Shown: one piece after another, positions 9,699 to 19,519 of the stretch
Layout: every line of letters starts with the position of its first letter
Numbering within the stretch: the first letter of the stretch is position 1
Assembly: GCF_003334315.1 (NCBI RefSeq)
Contig: NZ_QOWR01000043.1
Length of the DNA stretch: 42,323 nt
Reading direction: 5' to 3' (one strand)
Source: Escherichia coli
Lineage (GTDB): Bacteria > Pseudomonadota > Gammaproteobacteria > Enterobacterales > Enterobacteriaceae
Made by a program: the position numbers and the translations under genes
The notes under the pieces: model-generated
The model's input: the letters and a program-made list of their open reading frames with translations, nothing else
Database searches by the model: none
What the model was told of the DNA's origin: nothing

Positions 9699-10829
9699 GT
9701 GAAAGTACTGACTGTATTTGGTACGCGCCCGGAAGCCATCAAGATGGCGCCGTTGGTGCATGCGTTGGCAAAAGATCCTTTTTTTGAGGCTAAAGTTTGC
9801 GTCACTGCGCAGCATCGGGAGATGCTCGATCAGGTGCTGAAACTCTTTTCCATTGTACCTGACTACGATCTCAACATAATGCAGCCAGGACAGGGCCTGA
9901 CAGAGATAACCTGTCGGATTCTGGAAGGGCTAAAACCTATTCTTGCCGAGTTCAAACCAGACGTCGTGCTGGTTCACGGCGATACGACAACGACGCTGGC
10001 AACCAGCCTGGCGGCGTTTTATCAGCGTATTCCTGTTGGTCACGTTGAGGCTGGTCTGCGCACGGGCGATCTCTATTCGCCGTGGCCGGAAGAGGCTAAC
10101 CGTACATTGACCGGGCATCTGGCGATGTATCACTTCTCTCCAACCGAAACTTCCCGGCAAAACTTGCTGCGTGAAAACGTTGCGGATAGCCGAATCTTCA
10201 TTACCGGTAATACAGTCATTGATGCACTGTTATGGGTGCGTGACCAGGTGATGAGCAGCGACACGCTGCGTTCAGAACTGGCGGCAAATTACCCGTTTAT
10301 CGACCCCGATAAAAAGATGATTCTGGTGACCGGTCACAGGCGTGAGAGTTTCGGTCGTGGCTTTGAAGAAATCTGCCACGCGCTGGCAGACATCGCCACC
10401 ACGCACCAGGACATCCAGATTGTCTATCCGGTGCATCTCAACCCGAACGTCAGAGAGCCGGTCAATCGCATTCTGGGGCATGTGAAAAATGTCATTCTGA
10501 TCGATCCCCAGGAGTATTTACCGTTTGTCTGGCTGATGAACCACGCCTGGCTGATTTTGACCGACTCAGGCGGCATTCAGGAAGAAGCGCCTTCGCTGGG
10601 GAAACCTGTGCTGGTGATGCGCGATACCACTGAGCGTCCGGAAGCGGTGACGGCGGGTACGGTGCGTCTGGTAGGCACGGATAAGCAGCGAATTGTCGAG
10701 GAAGTGACGCGTCTTTTAAAAGACGAAAACGAATATCAAGCTATGAGCCGCGCCCATAACCCGTATGGTGATGGTCAGGCATGCTCTCGCATTCTGGAAG
10801 CGTTAAAAAATAATCGGATATCACTATGA
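9699..10829 (+). CDS. wecB: UDP-N-acetylglucosamine 2-epimerase WecB, 376 aa
   Basis: ORF 9657..10829; recognised start [18 protein letters not shown] corresponds to GTG at 9699; the upstream in-frame extension is probably not translated. Confidence 0.9.
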
Positions 10830-12088
10830 GTTTTGCGACCATTTCTGTTATCGGACTGGGTTATATCGGGCTGCCAACGGCAGCAGCGTTTGCCTCACGG
10901 CAAAAACAGGTAATTGGTGTCGATATCAACCAACATGCGGTTGATACCATCAATCGTGGCGAAATCCATATCGTCGAACCTGATTTGGCGAGTGTAGTAA
11001 AAACTGCCGTAGAAGGCGGTTTTTTACGAGCGAGCACGACGCCAGTTGAAGCGGATGCCTGGCTGATTGCTGTACCCACGCCGTTTAAGGGCGATCATGA
11101 GCCAGATATGACCTACGTTGAATCGGCTGCTCGCTCCATTGCGCCAGTGCTGAAAAAAGGCGCGCTGGTGATCCTTGAATCCACCTCGCCGGTGGGGTCA
11201 ACCGAGAAGATGGCAGAATGGTTAGCAGAGATGCGTCCGGATCTCACTTTCCCGCAGCAGGTGGGCGAGCAGGCGGACGTCAACATTGCTTACTGCCCGG
11301 AACGCGTGTTACCAGGACAGGTAATGGTCGAGCTGATTAAAAACGATCGCGTGATTGGTGGTATGACGCCGGTTTGTTCGGCCCGCGCCAGCGAACTGTA
11401 CAAAATTTTCCTCGAAGGTGAGTGTGTCGTCACTAACTCGCGGACGGCGGAAATGTGTAAGCTCACCGAAAACAGCTTCCGCGATGTGAATATCGCTTTT
11501 GCTAATGAATTGTCGCTGATTTGTGCCGATCAGGGGATTAACGTCTGGGAACTGATTCGCCTGGCGAATCGTCACCCTCGCGTTAATATTCTTCAGCCTG
11601 GCCCTGGCGTGGGCGGTCACTGCATTGCTGTTGATCCGTGGTTTATCGTGGCACAGAACCCCCAGCAGGCGCGGCTTATCCGTACCGCGCGCGAAGTGAA
11701 CGATCACAAACCGTTCTGGGTTATCGATCAGGTGAAAGCGGCGGTGGCTGATTGCCTGGCGGCTACCGATAAACGCGCCAGTGAACTGAAAATCGCCTGC
11801 TTTGGTCTGGCGTTTAAACCGAATATTGATGACCTGCGCGAAAGCCCGGCGATGGAAATCGCTGAACTGATCGCCCAGTGGCATAGCGGCGAAACTCTGG
11901 TTGTTGAGCCTAACATCCACCAGTTGCCGAAAAAACTGACCGGGCTTTGTACTCTGGCGCAGCTTGACGAGGCGCTGGCAACGGCAGACGTGCTGGTGAT
12001 GCTGGTCGATCATAGTCAGTTCAAAGTTATCAATGGCGACAATGTCCATCAGCAGTATGTTGTCGATGCCAAAGGAGTCTGGCGCTGA
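10826..12088 (+). CDS. wecC: UDP-N-acetyl-D-mannosamine dehydrogenase WecC, 420 aa
   Basis: ORF 10826..12088; Rossmann motif GLGYIGLP at N-terminus; start overlaps wecB stop (ATGA). Confidence 0.95.
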
Positions 12089-13155
12089 TGAGAAAAATTC
12101 TGATAACAGGTGGTGCCGGGTTTATTGGCTCGGCGCTGGTGCGTTATATCATCAACGAAACGAGCGACGCGGTGGTAGTGGTCGATAAGCTGACCTACGC
12201 CGGAAACCTGATGTCGCTGGCACCGGTCGCGCAAAGCGAGCGCTTTGCCTTTGAGAAAGTTGATATCTGCGATCGGGCAGAACTGGCACGCGTATTCACT
12301 GAGCATCAGCCAGACTGTGTCATGCATCTGGCAGCCGAAAGCCATGTTGACCGTTCTATTGACGGCCCGGCAGCGTTTATTGAAACCAACATTGTCGGGA
12401 CTTATACATTGCTTGAAGCGGCGCGGGCTTACTGGAATGCGCTGACGGAAGATAAAAAATCAGCGTTCCGTTTTCATCATATCTCCACTGACGAAGTATA
12501 TGGTGACCTGCACTCGACGGATGATTTCTTCACCGAAACCACGCCGTATGCGCCGAGCAGCCCTTATTCCGCGTCAAAAGCCAGCAGCGACCATCTGGTG
12601 CGCGCCTGGCTGCGGACCTATGGTCTGCCGACGCTTATCACCAACTGCTCGAATAACTACGGCCCTTACCACTTTCCGGAAAAACTGATCCCGCTGATGA
12701 TCCTCAACGCGCTGGCGGGTAAATCGCTGCCGGTATATGGCAACGGGCAGCAAATCCGTGACTGGCTGTATGTGGAAGATCACGCCCGCGCGCTGTATTG
12801 CGTGGCGACCACCGGGAAAGTCGGTGAAACCTATAATATTGGTGGTCACAACGAGCGTAAGAATCTCGATGTTGTGGAAACCATTTGCGAGCTGCTGGAA
12901 GAACTGACTCCGAACAAGCCGCACGGCGTGGTGCACTATAGTGACTTGATCACCTTTGTCGCTGACCGTCCGGGGCATGATCTGCGTTATGCCATTGATG
13001 CTTCGAAAATTGCCCGTGAACTTGGCTGGCTGCCGCAGGAAACCTTTGAAAGTGGAATGCGTAAAACGGTGCAGTGGTATCTGGCTAATGAAAGCTGGTG
13101 GAAGCAGGTGCAGGACGGCAGCTATCAGGGCGAGCGTTTAGGTCTGAAAGGCTAA
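12088..13155 (+). CDS. rffG: dTDP-glucose 4,6-dehydratase RffG, 355 aa
   Basis: ORF 12088..13155; SDR motif TGGAGFIGS; start overlaps wecC stop. Confidence 0.95.
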
Positions 13156-13173
13156 TTTTCAGCGGAGGCAAAC

Positions 13174-14055
13174 ATGAAAGGTATTATCCTGGCGGGCGGT
13201 TCCGGCACCCGATTGCATCCGATTACGCGCGGCGTATCGAAGCAACTGTTGCCGATTTACGATAAGCCAATGATTTACTATCCGCTGTCGGTGCTGATGC
13301 TGGCCGGTATCCGCGAAATTCTCATCATCACTACGCCGGAAGATAAAGGTTATTTCCAGCGCCTGCTGGGCGATGGTAGTGAGTTCGGTATCCAGCTGGA
13401 ATATGCCGAACAGCCCAGCCCGGACGGTCTGGCGCAGGCCTTTATCATCGGTGAAACCTTCCTTAATGGTGAACCTTCTTGTCTGGTGCTGGGCGATAAC
13501 ATCTTCTTCGGTCAGGGCTTCAGTCCGAAGCTGCGTCATGTTGCGGCGCGCACCGAAGGGGCGACGGTTTTTGGCTATCAGGTGATGGACCCGGAACGCT
13601 TTGGCGTGGTGGAGTTTGACGACAATTTCCGCGCTATCTCGCTGGAAGAAAAGCCAAAACAGCCGAAGTCAAACTGGGCGGTGACCGGGCTTTATTTCTA
13701 CGACAGTAAAGTCGTGGAGTACGCAAAGCAGGTGAAGCCGTCGGAGCGTGGTGAACTGGAGATTACCTCCATCAACCAGATGTACCTCGAGGCGGGCAAC
13801 CTGACCGTTGAACTGCTCGGGCGCGGATTTGCCTGGCTGGATACCGGCACTCACGACAGCCTGATTGAAGCCAGCACCTTTGTACAGACGGTGGAAAAAC
13901 GCCAGGGCTTTAAGATTGCCTGCCTGGAAGAGATTGCCTGGCGTAACGGCTGGCTCGATGACGAGGGTGTGAAGCGTGCTGCCAGTTCATTAGCGAAAAC
14001 TGGCTACGGCCAATATCTGCTGGAGTTACTTCGTGCCCGTCCGCGCCAGTATTGA
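13174..14055 (+). CDS. rffH: Glucose-1-phosphate thymidylyltransferase RffH, 293 aa
   Basis: ORF 13174..14055; nucleotidyltransferase motif [11 protein letters not shown]. Confidence 0.95.
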
Positions 14056-14707
14056 GCCACTAACCTGGGAAAACGCCTTCTTTGGTGTTAACAGCGCCAT
14101 CGTGCGCATTACGTCTGAAGCACCGCTCCTGACGCCAGACGCGTTAGCGCCGTGGTCACGGGTGCAGGCCAAAATTGCGGCATCAAATACGGGTGAACTG
14201 GATGCCCTGCAACAGCTGGGATTCTCCCTGGTAGAAGGTGAAGTTGATTTGGCGCTACCCGTGAACAATGCCAGTGATAGCGGTGCTGTAGTGGCACAAG
14301 AGACCGATATTCCCGCATTACGTCAGTTAGCCAGCGCCGCATTTGCGCAAAGCCGTTTTCGTGCGCCGTGGTATGCGCCTGACGCCAGCAGTCGCTTTTA
14401 TGCACAGTGGATTGAAAATGCCGTGCGCGGCACCTTTGATCATCAATGTCTGATTTTACGTGCGGCGTCCGGCGATATTCGCGGCTATGTCTCTTTACGG
14501 GAACTCAATGCGACAGATGCGCGAATTGGCCTGCTGGCTGGACGCGGTGCAGGTGCTGAGCTGATGCAAACGGCGCTAAACTGGGCGTATGCTCGCGGTA
14601 AAACAACTTTGCGGGTGGCGACCCAAATGGGCAACACCGCCGCGCTTAAACGATACATACAAAGTGGTGCGAATGTAGAAAGCACCGCGTACTGGTTATA
14701 CAGGTGA
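14033..14707 (+). CDS. wecD: dTDP-fucosamine acetyltransferase WecD (GNAT family); start codon uncertain
   Basis: ORF 14033..14707 begins at GTG and overlaps the rffH 3' end by 23 nt; a shorter product from an internal GTG (codon 44) is possible; acetyl-CoA-binding-like C-terminal half. Confidence 0.8.
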
Positions 14708-14711
14708 TCAC

Positions 14712-15842
14712 ATGATTCCATTTAACGCACCGCCGGTGGTGGGAACCGAACTCGACTATATGCAGTCGGCAATGGGTAGCGGCAAACTGTGTGGCGATGG
14801 CGGTTTTACCCGTCGCTGCCAGCAGTGGCTGGAGCAACGTTTTGGCAGCGCCAAAGTGTTACTGACGCCGTCCTGCACCGCTTCGCTGGAGATGGCGGCG
14901 CTGCTGCTCGATATCCAGCCTGGCGATGAAGTGATCATGCCGAGCTACACCTTTGTCTCCACCGCCAATGCCTTTGTGCTGCGTGGCGCAAAAATCGTTT
15001 TTGTGGATGTTCGCCCGGACACCATGAACATCGACGAAACGCTGATTGAAGCGGCGATCACCGACAAAACGCGCGTTATCGTGCCGGTCCATTACGCGGG
15101 TGTGGCCTGCGAAATGGACACCATTATGGCGTTGGCGAAAAAGCATAATTTGTTTGTGGTAGAAGATGCCGCTCAGGGCGTGATGTCCACTTACAAAGGG
15201 CGTGCACTGGGAACCATTGGTCATATTGGCTGCTTTAGCTTCCATGAAACCAAAAACTACACGGCGGGCGGTGAAGGCGGCGCGACGCTGATTAACGATA
15301 AAGCGTTAATCGAACGAGCCGAGATCATCCGTGAAAAGGGCACTAACCGCAGCCAGTTCTTCCGTGGTCAGGTCGATAAATATACCTGGCGCGATATTGG
15401 CTCCAGCTATTTGATGTCCGATCTGCAAGCTGCATACCTGTGGGCGCAACTGGAAGCAGCGGATCGTATCAACCAGCAACGTCTGGCGCTGTGGCAAAAC
15501 TACTACGATGCGTTAGCGCCTCTGGCGAAAGCCGGGCGTATCGAGCTGCCGTCGATTCCCGATGGCTGCGTGCAGAACGCGCATATGTTCTACATTAAAC
15601 TGCGGGATATTGATGACCGGAGCGCGTTGATTAACTTTCTGAAAGAAGCGGAAATCATGGCGGTGTTTCATTACATTCCGCTGCACGGTTGCCCTGCGGG
15701 GGAACACTTTGGTGAGTTCCACGGTGAAGATCGCTACACCACCAAAGAGAGCGAGCGCCTGCTGCGCCTGCCGCTGTTCTACAACCTGTCGCCCGTCAAT
15801 CAGCGTACGGTAATTGCGACTTTGTTGAACTACTTTTCCTGA
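14712..15842 (+). CDS. wecE: dTDP-4-amino-4,6-dideoxygalactose transaminase WecE, 376 aa
   Basis: ORF 14712..15842; DegT/DnrJ/EryC1-type PLP aminotransferase. Confidence 0.95.
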   Translation: MIPFNAPPVVGTELDYMQSAMGSGKLCGDGGFTRRCQQWLEQRFGSAKVLLTPSCTASLEMAALLLDIQPGDEVIMPSYTFVSTANAFVLRGAKIVFVDVRPDTMNIDETLIEAAITDKTRVIVPVHYAGVACEMDTIMALAKKHNLFVVEDAAQGVMSTYKGRALGTIGHIGCFSFHETKNYTAGGEGGATLINDKALIERAEIIREKGTNRSQFFRGQVDKYTWRDIGSSYLMSDLQAAYLWAQLEAADRINQQRLALWQNYYDALAPLAKAGRIELPSIPDGCVQNAHMFYIKLRDIDDRSALINFLKEAEIMAVFHYIPLHGCPAGEHFGEFHGEDRYTTKESERLLRLPLFYNLSPVNQRTVIATLLNYFS

Positions 15843-15843
15843 T

Positions 15844-17094
15844 ATGTCGTTGGCAAAAGCGTCCTTGTGGACGGCGGCCAGTACACTGGTCAAGATTGGT
15901 GCCGGGTTACTGGTCGGTAAGTTGCTGGCGGTGTCATTTGGTCCGGCGGGGCTTGGGCTGGCGGCAAATTTCCGCCAGTTGATTACCGTGCTCGGCGTGC
16001 TTGCCGGGGCTGGCATCTTTAACGGTGTAACCAAATACGTTGCCCAGTACCATGATAATCCGCAACAGCTGCGCCGCGTGGTCGGCACTTCATCAGCGAT
16101 GGTACTTGGTTTCTCTACGCTGATGGCGCTGGTTTTTGTGCTGGCAGCTGCGCCAATCAGCCAGGGATTGTTTGGTAATACCGACTATCAGGGGCTGGTG
16201 CGTTTAGTGGCGCTGGTGCAAATGGGGATCGCCTGGGGCAACCTGTTACTGGCGCTGATGAAAGGCTTTCGCGATGCCGCAGGTAATGCGTTATCGCTGA
16301 TTGTCGGCAGCTTGATTGGCGTTCTCGCGTACTACGTCAGTTACCGTTTGGGCGGTTATGAAGGGGCGTTGCTGGGTCTGGCGCTGATTCCCGCGCTGGT
16401 GGTAATTCCTGCCGCCATCATGTTGATCAAACGTGGTGTCATCCCGTTAAGCTATCTGAAACCCAGCTGGGATAACGGTCTGGCAGGGCAGTTGAGCAAA
16501 TTTACGCTCATGGCGTTGATTACGTCGGTGACCTTGCCTGTTGCTTACATCATGATGCGTAAACTGCTGGCGGCGCAGTATAGCTGGGATGAGGTGGGGA
16601 TCTGGCAAGGGGTGAGCAGTATTTCCGATGCCTACCTGCAATTTATTACGGCATCGTTCAGCGTATATTTGCTGCCCACGTTGTCGCGGCTAACGGAAAA
16701 GCGCGATATCACCCGGGAAGTGGTTAAATCGCTGAAATTCGTCTTACCGGCAGTGGCGGCGGCGAGTTTTACCGTCTGGCTGCTGCGTGATTTTGCTATC
16801 TGGCTGCTGTTGTCGAATAAATTTACCGCTATGCGCGATCTCTTTGCCTGGCAGTTAGTGGGTGATGTGTTAAAAGTGGGCGCTTATGTCTTTGGTTATC
16901 TGGTGATCGCCAAAGCGTCACTGTGGTTTTATATTCTGGCGGAAGTCAGCCAGTTCACTTTATTGATGGTATTTGCCCACTGGCTAATCCCTGCGCATGG
17001 TGCACTGGGCGCGGCGCAGGCATATATGGCAACTTATATCGTCTATTTTTCTCTTTGTTGTGGCGTGTTTTTACTCTGGCGTAGGCGGGCATGA
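15844..17094 (+). CDS. wzxE: ECA lipid III flippase WzxE, 416 aa
   Basis: ORF 15844..17094; polytopic membrane protein of the Wzx flippase family. Confidence 0.93.
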
Positions 17095-18170
17095 CTGTAC
17101 TGATTCACGTACTGGGATCGGATATCCCTCACCATAACCGAACCGTTTTGCGGTTTTTCAATGACGCGCTGGCCGCGACGAGCGAGCACGCGCGCGAGTT
17201 TATGGTTGTTGGCAAGGACGACGGCTTAAGTGATAGCTGTCCGGCGCTTTCTGTGCAATTTTTCCCTGGGAAAAAATCGCTGGCGGAAGCGGTCATCGCG
17301 AAAGCAAAAGCTAACCGTCAGCAGCGTTTTTTCTTCCACGGTCAGTTCAATCCCACACTGTGGCTGGCTCTGCTGAGTGGTGGCATTAAGCCCAGCCAGT
17401 TTTTCTGGCATATCTGGGGGGCAGACCTGTATGAGCTTTCCAGTGGCTTGAGATATAAGCTTTTTTACCCACTACGTCGCCTGGCGCAAAAGCGAGTCGG
17501 CTGTGTATTTGCCACCCGCGGCGATTTGAGCTTTTTTGCCAAAACGCACCCAAAGGTGCGGGGCGAACTGCTGTACTTCCCGACGCGGATGGACCCTTCG
17601 CTCAATACGATGGCGAACGATCGGCAACGTGAAGGGAAAATGACCATTCTGGTGGGGAACTCCGGCGACCGCAGCAATGAGCATATTGCTGCCTTGCGCG
17701 CCGTTCATCAGCAATTTGGCGATACGGTAAAAGTGGTGGTGCCGATGGGATATCCGCCTAATAACGAAGCGTACATTGAGGAAGTTCGTCAGGCGGGGCT
17801 GGAGTTATTCAGCGAAGAAAATCTACAAATTCTGAGCGAAAAACTGGAATTTGACGCCTATCTGGCGCTACTTCGTCAGTGCGATCTTGGTTACTTTATT
17901 TTTGCCCGCCAGCAGGGCATTGGTACGCTGTGCTTACTGATTCAGGCGGGCATTCCTTGTGTGCTTAACCGGGAAAATCCGTTCTGGCAGGATATGACGG
18001 AACAATATTTGCCGGTGCTGTTTACTACCGACGATCTCAACGAGGATATTGTGCGTGAAGCGCAGCGCCAGTTGGCGTCGGTGGATAAAAACACCATTGC
18101 CTTCTTTAGCCCTAACTATCTACAAGGCTGGCAGCGGGCGTTGGCGATTGCCGCCGGGGAGGTCGCATGA
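17091..18170 (+). CDS. wecF: TDP-Fuc4NAc:lipid II Fuc4NAc transferase WecF, 359 aa
   Basis: ORF 17091..18170; start overlaps wzxE stop; position in ECA cluster. Confidence 0.93.
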
Positions 18171-19519
18171 GTCTGCTGCAATTCAGTGGCCTGTTTGTTG
18201 TCTGGCTGCTCTGCACGCTGTTTATTGCCACGCTGACCTGGTTTGAGTTTCGCCGTGTGCGCTTTAACTTCAATGTCTTCTTTTCATTGCTGTTTTTGCT
18301 CACCTTTTTCTTCGGCTTCCCGCTGACCAGCGTGCTGGTATTTCGCTTTGATGTTGGTGTCGCGCCGCCAGAAATCTTGTTGCAGGCGTTGCTTTCTGCG
18401 GGCTGCTTCTACGCGGTTTACTATGTCACCTACAAAACCCGCCTACGCAAACGCGTTGCTGATGTACCGCGCCGTCCGCTGTTTACCATGAACCGCGTGG
18501 AGACCAATCTTACGTGGGTGATCCTGATGGGTATCGCGCTGGTAAGCGTCGGCATCTTCTTCATGCACAACGGCTTTTTGCTGTTCCGGCTTAACTCCTA
18601 CAGTCAGATCTTTTCCAGTGAAGTCTCCGGCGTGGCGTTAAAACGCTTCTTTTACTTTTTCATCCCGGCGATGCTGGTGGTCTACTTTCTGCGCCAGGAC
18701 AGCAAAGCGTGGCTGTTTTTCCTCGTCAGCACGGTCGCCTTTGGCTTGCTGACTTATATGATTGTCGGCGGCACTCGCGCCAATATCATCATCGCATTCG
18801 CTATCTTCCTGTTTATTGGCATTATTCGCGGCTGGATTTCGTTGTGGATGCTGGCGGCGGCGGGCGTGCTGGGGATTGTTGGCATGTTCTGGCTGGCACT
18901 AAAACGCTATGGAATGAATGTGAGCGGCGATGAAGCGTTCTATACGTTTCTCTATCTCACTCGCGACACCTTCTCGCCGTGGGAGAATCTGGCGTTGCTG
19001 TTGCAGAACTACGACAACATCGACTTCCAGGGCCTGGCTCCAATTGTCCGCGATTTCTATGTCTTTATCCCTTCCTGGCTGTGGCCGGGTCGCCCGAGTA
19101 TGGTGCTGAACTCAGCCAACTACTTTACCTGGGAAGTGCTGAATAACCACTCCGGACTGGCGATCTCGCCTACGCTTATAGGCTCACTGGTGGTGATGGG
19201 CGGCGCGTTGTTCATCCCGCTCGGGGCGATCGTGGTTGGTCTGATCATCAAATGGTTCGACTGGCTGTATGAGCTGGGCAACCGCGAGCCTAATCGCTAT
19301 AAAGCTGCGATATTGCACAGTTTCTGCTTTGGGGCGATCTTCAATATGATCGTGCTGGCGCGTGAAGGGCTGGATTCGTTTGTCTCACGCGTGGTCTTTT
19401 TTATCGTGGTCTTCGGCGCATGTCTGATGATCGCAAAACTGTTGTACTGGCTTTTTGAAAGCGCCGGACTCATTCATAAACGTACAAAATCATCGCTCCG
19501 GACGCAGGTTGAAGGATAA
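18167..19519 (+). CDS. wzyE: ECA polymerase WzyE, 450 aa
   Basis: ORF 18167..19519; highly hydrophobic polytopic membrane protein; start overlaps wecF stop. Confidence 0.93.

Follow-up and report, generated by a model that had tools for sequence, protein, structure and literature searches.

The window, a stretch of 42,323 nt from Escherichia coli (contig NZ_QOWR01000043.1), carries the ECA (wec/rff) gene cluster in the order wecC-rffG-rffH-wecD-wecE-wzxE. The features around the junction of rffH and wecD are listed in Table 1. The names wecD and rffH, under which the original prediction had described the two genes, are correct, as the RefSeq annotation has rffC with exactly the coordinates 14033..14707, flanked by rfbA/rffH and rffA/wecE. 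As expected of a WecD/RffC gene, wecD adjoins wecE (rffA), and this gene order is common to the window and to two more distant orthologous loci, L082 and L083. The gene is the same as that of E. coli K-12 WecD/RffC (UniProt WECD_ECOLI; PDB 2FS5, 2FT0; Hung et al. 2006, J Bacteriol 188:5606), with no substantive difference. Over positions 13900-14800 the DNA matches that of the K-12 derivative JM83 with 100% identity, and this segment was found in 5,426 of the 5,426 complete E. coli genomes searched.

Table 1. Features at the rffH-wecD junction; coordinates are positions of the window.
Feature	Position	Strand	Basis or remark
rffH (RmlA-ECA; RefSeq name rfbA), glucose-1-phosphate thymidylyltransferase, 5' of wecD	13174..14055	+	ORF list, RefSeq
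Nearest in-frame stop 5' of wecD, TAG	13991..13993	+	leaves 13 codons with 0 canonical starts
Shine-Dalgarno sequence GGAGU, spacer 6 nt	14022..14026	+	within rffH Leu-Glu codons
wecD start codon very probably in use, GTG	14033..14035	+	sole ATG/GTG/TTG between stop 13991 and the W12 codon
Dual-coding overlap, 23 nt	14033..14055	+	rffH 3' end (RARPRQY*) and wecD codons 1-8
wecD (rffC) CDS, 224 aa, dTDP-4-amino-4,6-dideoxy-D-galactose (TDP-fucosamine) acetyltransferase	14033..14707	+	ORF list, RefSeq, NF008212
[quoted passage not shown]
W-[ED]-[SN]-x-F-F motif (here W-E-N-A-F-F), codons 12-17	14066..14083	+	5' of both internal GTGs (codons 24 and 44)
GTG at codon 24, probably an internal valine codon and not a start	14102..14104	+	weak Shine-Dalgarno pairing; GTG in 36/80 species
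GTG at codon 44, probably an internal valine codon and not a start	14162..14164	+	weak Shine-Dalgarno pairing; codon drift; inside strand 43-49
Catalytic GNAT domain binding acetyl-CoA, residues 70-218	14240..14686	+	2FT0 review, Pfam

The surrounding operon (10826-19519) is tightly packed. Overlaps of 4 nt are present between wecB and wecC, wzxE and wecF, and wecF and wzyE, and one of 1 nt between wecC and rffG; wecD and wecE are separated by a gap of 4 nt, and an AGGTGA Shine-Dalgarno sequence spans the wecD stop. The 23-nt overlap of rffH and wecD is the longest in this operon.

The longest wecD frame begins at GTG 14033, exactly 23 nt inside rffH and in a different frame from it, and the coordinates given in the original prediction are thereby confirmed; rffH terminates at TGA 14053-14055. 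The prediction also held that no in-frame ATG occurs for more than 170 codons, and indeed the first is codon 178 (14564). The second start which it considered, the GTG at codon 44 (14162), would yield a protein of exactly 181 aa, compared to the "about 181" stated there. Further in-frame candidates, absent from the prediction, are a GTG at codon 24 (14102, 201 aa), a TTG at codon 73 and GTGs at codons 77, 87 and 131. An N-terminal extension upstream of 14033 was considered and rejected: only 13 codons are available, with no canonical start and no conservation among them.

When 1.84 billion representative proteins were searched exhaustively with HMMER, 398 relatives were returned at E ≤ 1e-10, and for full-length relatives (220-250 aa) the alignment begins at residues 1-12 of the query and at residues 1-15 of the relative. 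Conservation was assessed on an alignment of 94 homologues with 29-90% identity. W12 and F17 are invariant among them, down to 29% identity, and F16 is at least 90% conserved. The mean frequency of the most common residue is 0.52 over residues 8-23, which are thus conserved to the same degree as residues 44-224 (0.48), and two stretches are variable, residues 1-7 (0.30) and residues 24-43 (0.26). By this profile WecD is conserved from about residue 8 onwards, a position well ahead of both internal GTGs and only a little past GTG 14033. The predicted N-termini of the homologues, which derive from gene callers and from sequences chosen at 215-260 aa, lie 5-20 residues before W12, with a mode of 11 that equals the E. 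coli value.

One distant homologue (P0166, 223 aa) retains the motif as W-x-S-x-F-F and is missing most of the equivalent of residues 20-43, so that the motif leads almost straight into the conserved QAK strand. This agrees with residues 24-43 being under less constraint than any other part of the WecD N-terminal domain.

Ribosome-binding sites were scored by pairing the 3' end of the 16S rRNA to the 22 nt that precede each candidate. At GTG 14033 the pairing amounts to -5.9 kcal/mol, which ranks it in the top 8% of the window's 774 plus-strand GTGs. Pairing is weak at the internal GTGs, with -2.8 kcal/mol at codon 24 and -2.2 kcal/mol at codon 44, both close to the median of window GTGs; among these three codons only GTG 14033 has a Shine-Dalgarno sequence. 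The GGA of this sequence is invariant in the 45 rffH-bearing species examined, a pattern which is confounded by the coding function of rffH at the same positions. Both the alignment of orthologues, with conservation from about residue 8, and the scoring of ribosome-binding sites had been proposed in the original prediction as means of distinguishing the starts, and both favour GTG 14033.

The start was further compared at the DNA level among 80 wecD loci, all from Enterobacteriaceae, with L082 and L083 taken separately. None of the 80 species has the wecD frame closed ahead of the W12 codon. At the position of wecD codon 1, 70 of them have a canonical start (GTG in 55, ATG in 14, TTG in one); in the remaining ten such a start lies 10-16 codons before W12, at most five codons from the homologous position. 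For 34 species the homologous start is the only canonical one between the upstream in-frame stop and W12. Codon 44 drifts like an ordinary Val/Leu codon. It is GTG in 51 species, GTA in 17, CTG in seven, TTG in three, TTA in one and GTT in one, so that GTG or TTG is found in 54/80 species only, and codon 24 is GTG in 36/80 species and GTT, GTC, GTA, CTG and others elsewhere.

Codons 8-43 carry a clear coding signature. Median dN/dS against E. coli, taken from 52 species with ≥72% identity and approximate since pS is near saturation in many pairs, amounts to 0.146 over codons 8-43 (and to 0.09 when only codons 8-23 are taken), while codons 44-69 and 70-224 have 0.10 and 0.11, respectively. The column entropy of codons 8-43 is 0.82, 0.63 and 1.38 bits at the first, second and third codon position, respectively. 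Upstream of codon 44, where a conserved site of internal initiation should leave raised synonymous constraint, none is seen: codons 34-40 have 1.66 bits, and the mean of the gene is 1.28.

The upstream gene differs among these species, as classified with full-length WecC, RffG and RffH. Intact rffH precedes wecD in 46 species, every one of which has an overlap of exactly 23 nt; the orthologue L082 (53% identical) likewise keeps both the GTG and the 23-nt overlap. By contrast, 32 of the 80 species have no rffG-rffH between wecC and wecD, and wecC lies directly upstream of wecD. Here wecD overlaps the wecC stop by 4 nt in 13 species and by 1 nt in three, and a gap of 9-78 nt separates the genes in 16. 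The two remaining species have rffG directly upstream of wecD in one case and only a fragment of rffH in the other. In the orthologue L083 (44% identical) a free-standing ATG, 11 codons before the W, comes after a 171-nt AT-rich spacer, with a GAGGA Shine-Dalgarno sequence ahead of it and an in-frame TGA eight codons upstream. The same N-terminus across these contexts implies that the start position is a property of wecD itself rather than a by-product of the overlap with rffH.

The loci without rffG-rffH include L005, L011, L016, L019, L034, L044, L056, L057, L065-L070, L072, L074-L077 and L079-L081, among others; the 4-nt overlap of wecC and wecD has the form xTGA.

Within the overlap, the third positions of wecD codons, which are the first positions of rffH codons, are invariant in the 45 rffH-bearing species examined, and all variation falls on the second positions of wecD, which are the wobble positions of rffH. 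RffH thereby keeps its C-terminus RARPRQY, and the changes are seen in WecD at residues 2, 4 and 6, which vary among P/L/R/H, R/H/L and S/N.

WecD catalyses the acetyl-CoA-dependent N-acetylation of dTDP-Fuc4N, according to PMC7439462 and PMC4964394. The chain in PDB 2FS5/2FT0, entered as TDP-fucosamine acetyltransferase, has 235 residues, composed of an 11-residue tag and residues 2-224, and WecD of the window is ~99% identical to it over residues 2-224, with three differences (A79V, S120G and one more). [quoted passage not shown] Since a recombinant with a tag, made to match the annotated gene, was crystallised, the structure demonstrates the folding of residues 3-69 but not the place where the native ribosome starts. 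Matches to Pfam GNAT families are confined to residues 89-208 (PF00583, residues 115-208, E = 4.5e-6; PF13302, residues 89-206).

Mean pLDDT is 97.2 for an AlphaFold2 model based on the alignment of 94 homologues, with values ≥96 over residues 1-70. Its secondary-structure elements are strands 4-9, 21-26, 43-49 and 65-76, the last running past residue 69, and helices 11-17, 35-38 and 53-61. V44 is located inside the strand 43-49, and a start at codon 44 would therefore remove two strands and two helices and begin within the third strand. According to the original prediction, the choice of start decides whether WecD has an extra N-terminal domain. The ~70-residue partial-GNAT domain with its W-x-x-x-F-F motif is present only with the start at 14033; the wording is imprecise in that a codon-44 start would not remove the domain of residues 3-69 as a unit but cut it in half.

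Taken together, conservation, Shine-Dalgarno pairing and gene context make it very probable that wecD is translated from GTG 14033 into the known two-domain enzyme of 224 residues, and we infer that this codon is the native start in vivo. In the TRAINSPOTTER and TetRP supplements wecD has no entry. The 224-aa start is already given in RefSeq and UniProt and used in the crystal structure. Ribosomes would be recruited by the GGAGU sequence within the last codons of rffH and would initiate at GTG 14033, 23 nt before rffH terminates, with the GTGs at codons 24 and 44 presumably read as ordinary internal valine codons. Judging from the gene arrangement, initiation at wecD is probably coupled to the translation of rffH, because in 70-odd of the 80 species the start overlaps a terminating upstream ORF or lies no more than a few nucleotides from it.

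This arrangement resembles that of translationally coupled overlapping operon pairs, as the Shine-Dalgarno sequence and start of wecD are both contained in the last part of rffH, and as this layout recurs among the species compared. It differs from such pairs in that the wecD start does not seem to be masked by a structure which upstream translation would have to open: no masking RNA structure was detected at the start, and the local fold is no more stable than that of shuffled sequence (z = 0.32). It is possible to go further and regard the 23-nt overlap as a functional coupling device, or to assume a low-level 181-aa isoform from codon 44, but we consider such a reading unlikely. If the overlap is such a device, the weak GTG may be used efficiently only when upstream translation terminates at the TGA 23 nt inside wecD. 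This would be in line with eight species which have lost rffG-rffH and in which a remnant mini-ORF still runs to the same TGA.

In these eight species (L025, L029, L030, L033, L036, L045 and L055, with the remnant ~80 nt upstream of wecD, and L037; L029 and L030 are from Raoultella) the spacer between wecC and wecD consists of an in-frame rffG'-'rffH deletion remnant. The mini-ORF has ~20-35 codons and extends from the wecC stop (GTGA/TTGA) to the TGA 23 nt inside wecD. The frame is uninterrupted in 8 of 8 species, though its peptide is very divergent. The remnant may preserve translational coupling, but it may also be open by chance, with a probability of ~0.29 per independent lineage that 26 codons stay open.

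We also have to consider that initiation occurs mostly at GTG 14033 and to a minor extent at codon 44 (or 24), with a truncated isoform that has some role. GTG codons do exist at 14102 and 14162, pairing of Shine-Dalgarno type (≤ -5 kcal/mol) is found upstream of codon 44 in 26% of the species, and in-frame internal starts are known in E. coli (bioRxiv 10.1101/520783). Nevertheless, dual initiation appears very improbable for wecD. Genes with a functional in-frame internal start, such as infB and arcB, are distinguished by an SD-like element, which codons 24 and 44 lack in E. coli, and by a conserved codon with raised synonymous constraint, neither of which is seen at codon 44: this codon drifts synonymously (canonical start in 54/80 species), codon 24 is GTG or TTG in 41/80, and codons 34-40 show no elevated constraint (1.66 vs 1.28 bits). 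The product would moreover begin inside a beta-strand and be devoid of half of a folded domain. The main text of the Ribo-RET study (bioRxiv 10.1101/520783) does not mention wecD.

A nearby non-canonical start, either the ATT at codon 7 (14051) or the upstream CTG 14000 or ATC 14015, is scarcely credible. Such codons are present in frame and residues 1-7 are poorly conserved (0.30), but ATT, CTG and ATC are very poor start codons in E. coli. A canonical start is present at the homologous position in 70/80 species with a correctly spaced Shine-Dalgarno sequence, and the upstream extension is unconserved and interrupted by in-frame stops at varying distances. Among the INRI-seq entries listed (Table S3), wecD is represented by a weak CTG signal at -13 (RPF 6.6, 2/5 replicates, Ribo-RET 0), which is near the start but out of frame. 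A CTG 13 nt upstream of the annotated start fits only CTG 14020 together with a start at 14033, and this offset implies that the annotated wecD start of MG1655 (NC_000913.3) is the equivalent of 14033; it corresponds to position 3974466 there, with codons 24 and 44 at 3974535 and 3974595.

The original prediction regarded the start of wecD as ambiguous. This holds insofar as at least two GTGs are formally possible and databases differ, but conservation and Shine-Dalgarno pairing favour 14033. By exact look-up, one and the same E. coli protein is on deposit at three different lengths. The 224-aa form (WECD_ECOLI) is present on at least 1000 contigs, the 201-aa form on 21 contigs (AJE58355.1, STJ83551.1) and the 181-aa form on 23 contigs (AAG58985.1, "hypothetical protein Z5301" of EDL933; ABV08199.1; ABV21158.1; ACT41306.1). 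The older model TIGR02382 (wecD_rffC, 191 positions) matches residues 44-224 exactly (14162-14704), which implies that it was built on a truncated start. The truncated forms, which persist only in older GenBank records, and TIGR02382 begin at the codon-44 or codon-24 GTG of the same gene and drop residues 1-43 (or 1-23); this segment is conserved, shows coding-type evolution and has an ordered structure. RefSeq and the newer NCBIfam equivalog NF008212, unlike these records, use the full 224 aa; residues 1-224 match NF008212 over profile positions 1-231/232 with 357.6 bits (cut-off 219). The ambiguity is a real historical inconsistency of annotation which is already settled in curated resources.

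That the codon-44 GTG is the only real start, with codons 1-43 as an untranslated spacer, would agree with the 181-aa depositions and the exact span of TIGR02382 and would avoid the gene overlap, but it is almost certainly wrong and already contradicted by the conservation data, as codons 8-43 evolve as coding (dN/dS 0.146, entropy excess at third positions), W12 and F17 do not vary even in homologues of 29% identity, 80/80 species keep an open frame, codon 44 has no Shine-Dalgarno sequence and residues 3-43 are ordered in the crystal structure.

The question of the wecD start matters little beyond annotation hygiene. The truncated 181- and 201-aa records and TIGR02382 are still circulating, and newly annotated sequences can inherit the short start from them. 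The gene is also a clean worked example of how conservation, Shine-Dalgarno scoring and varying gene context fix an overlapping GTG start. A further oddity of the databases is that the 90%-identity cluster with WecD also contains RfbA/RffH sequences of 293 aa, one of which is its representative. This is probably a clustering artefact derived from fused or frameshifted rffH-wecD ORFs, such as the 276-aa P0003.
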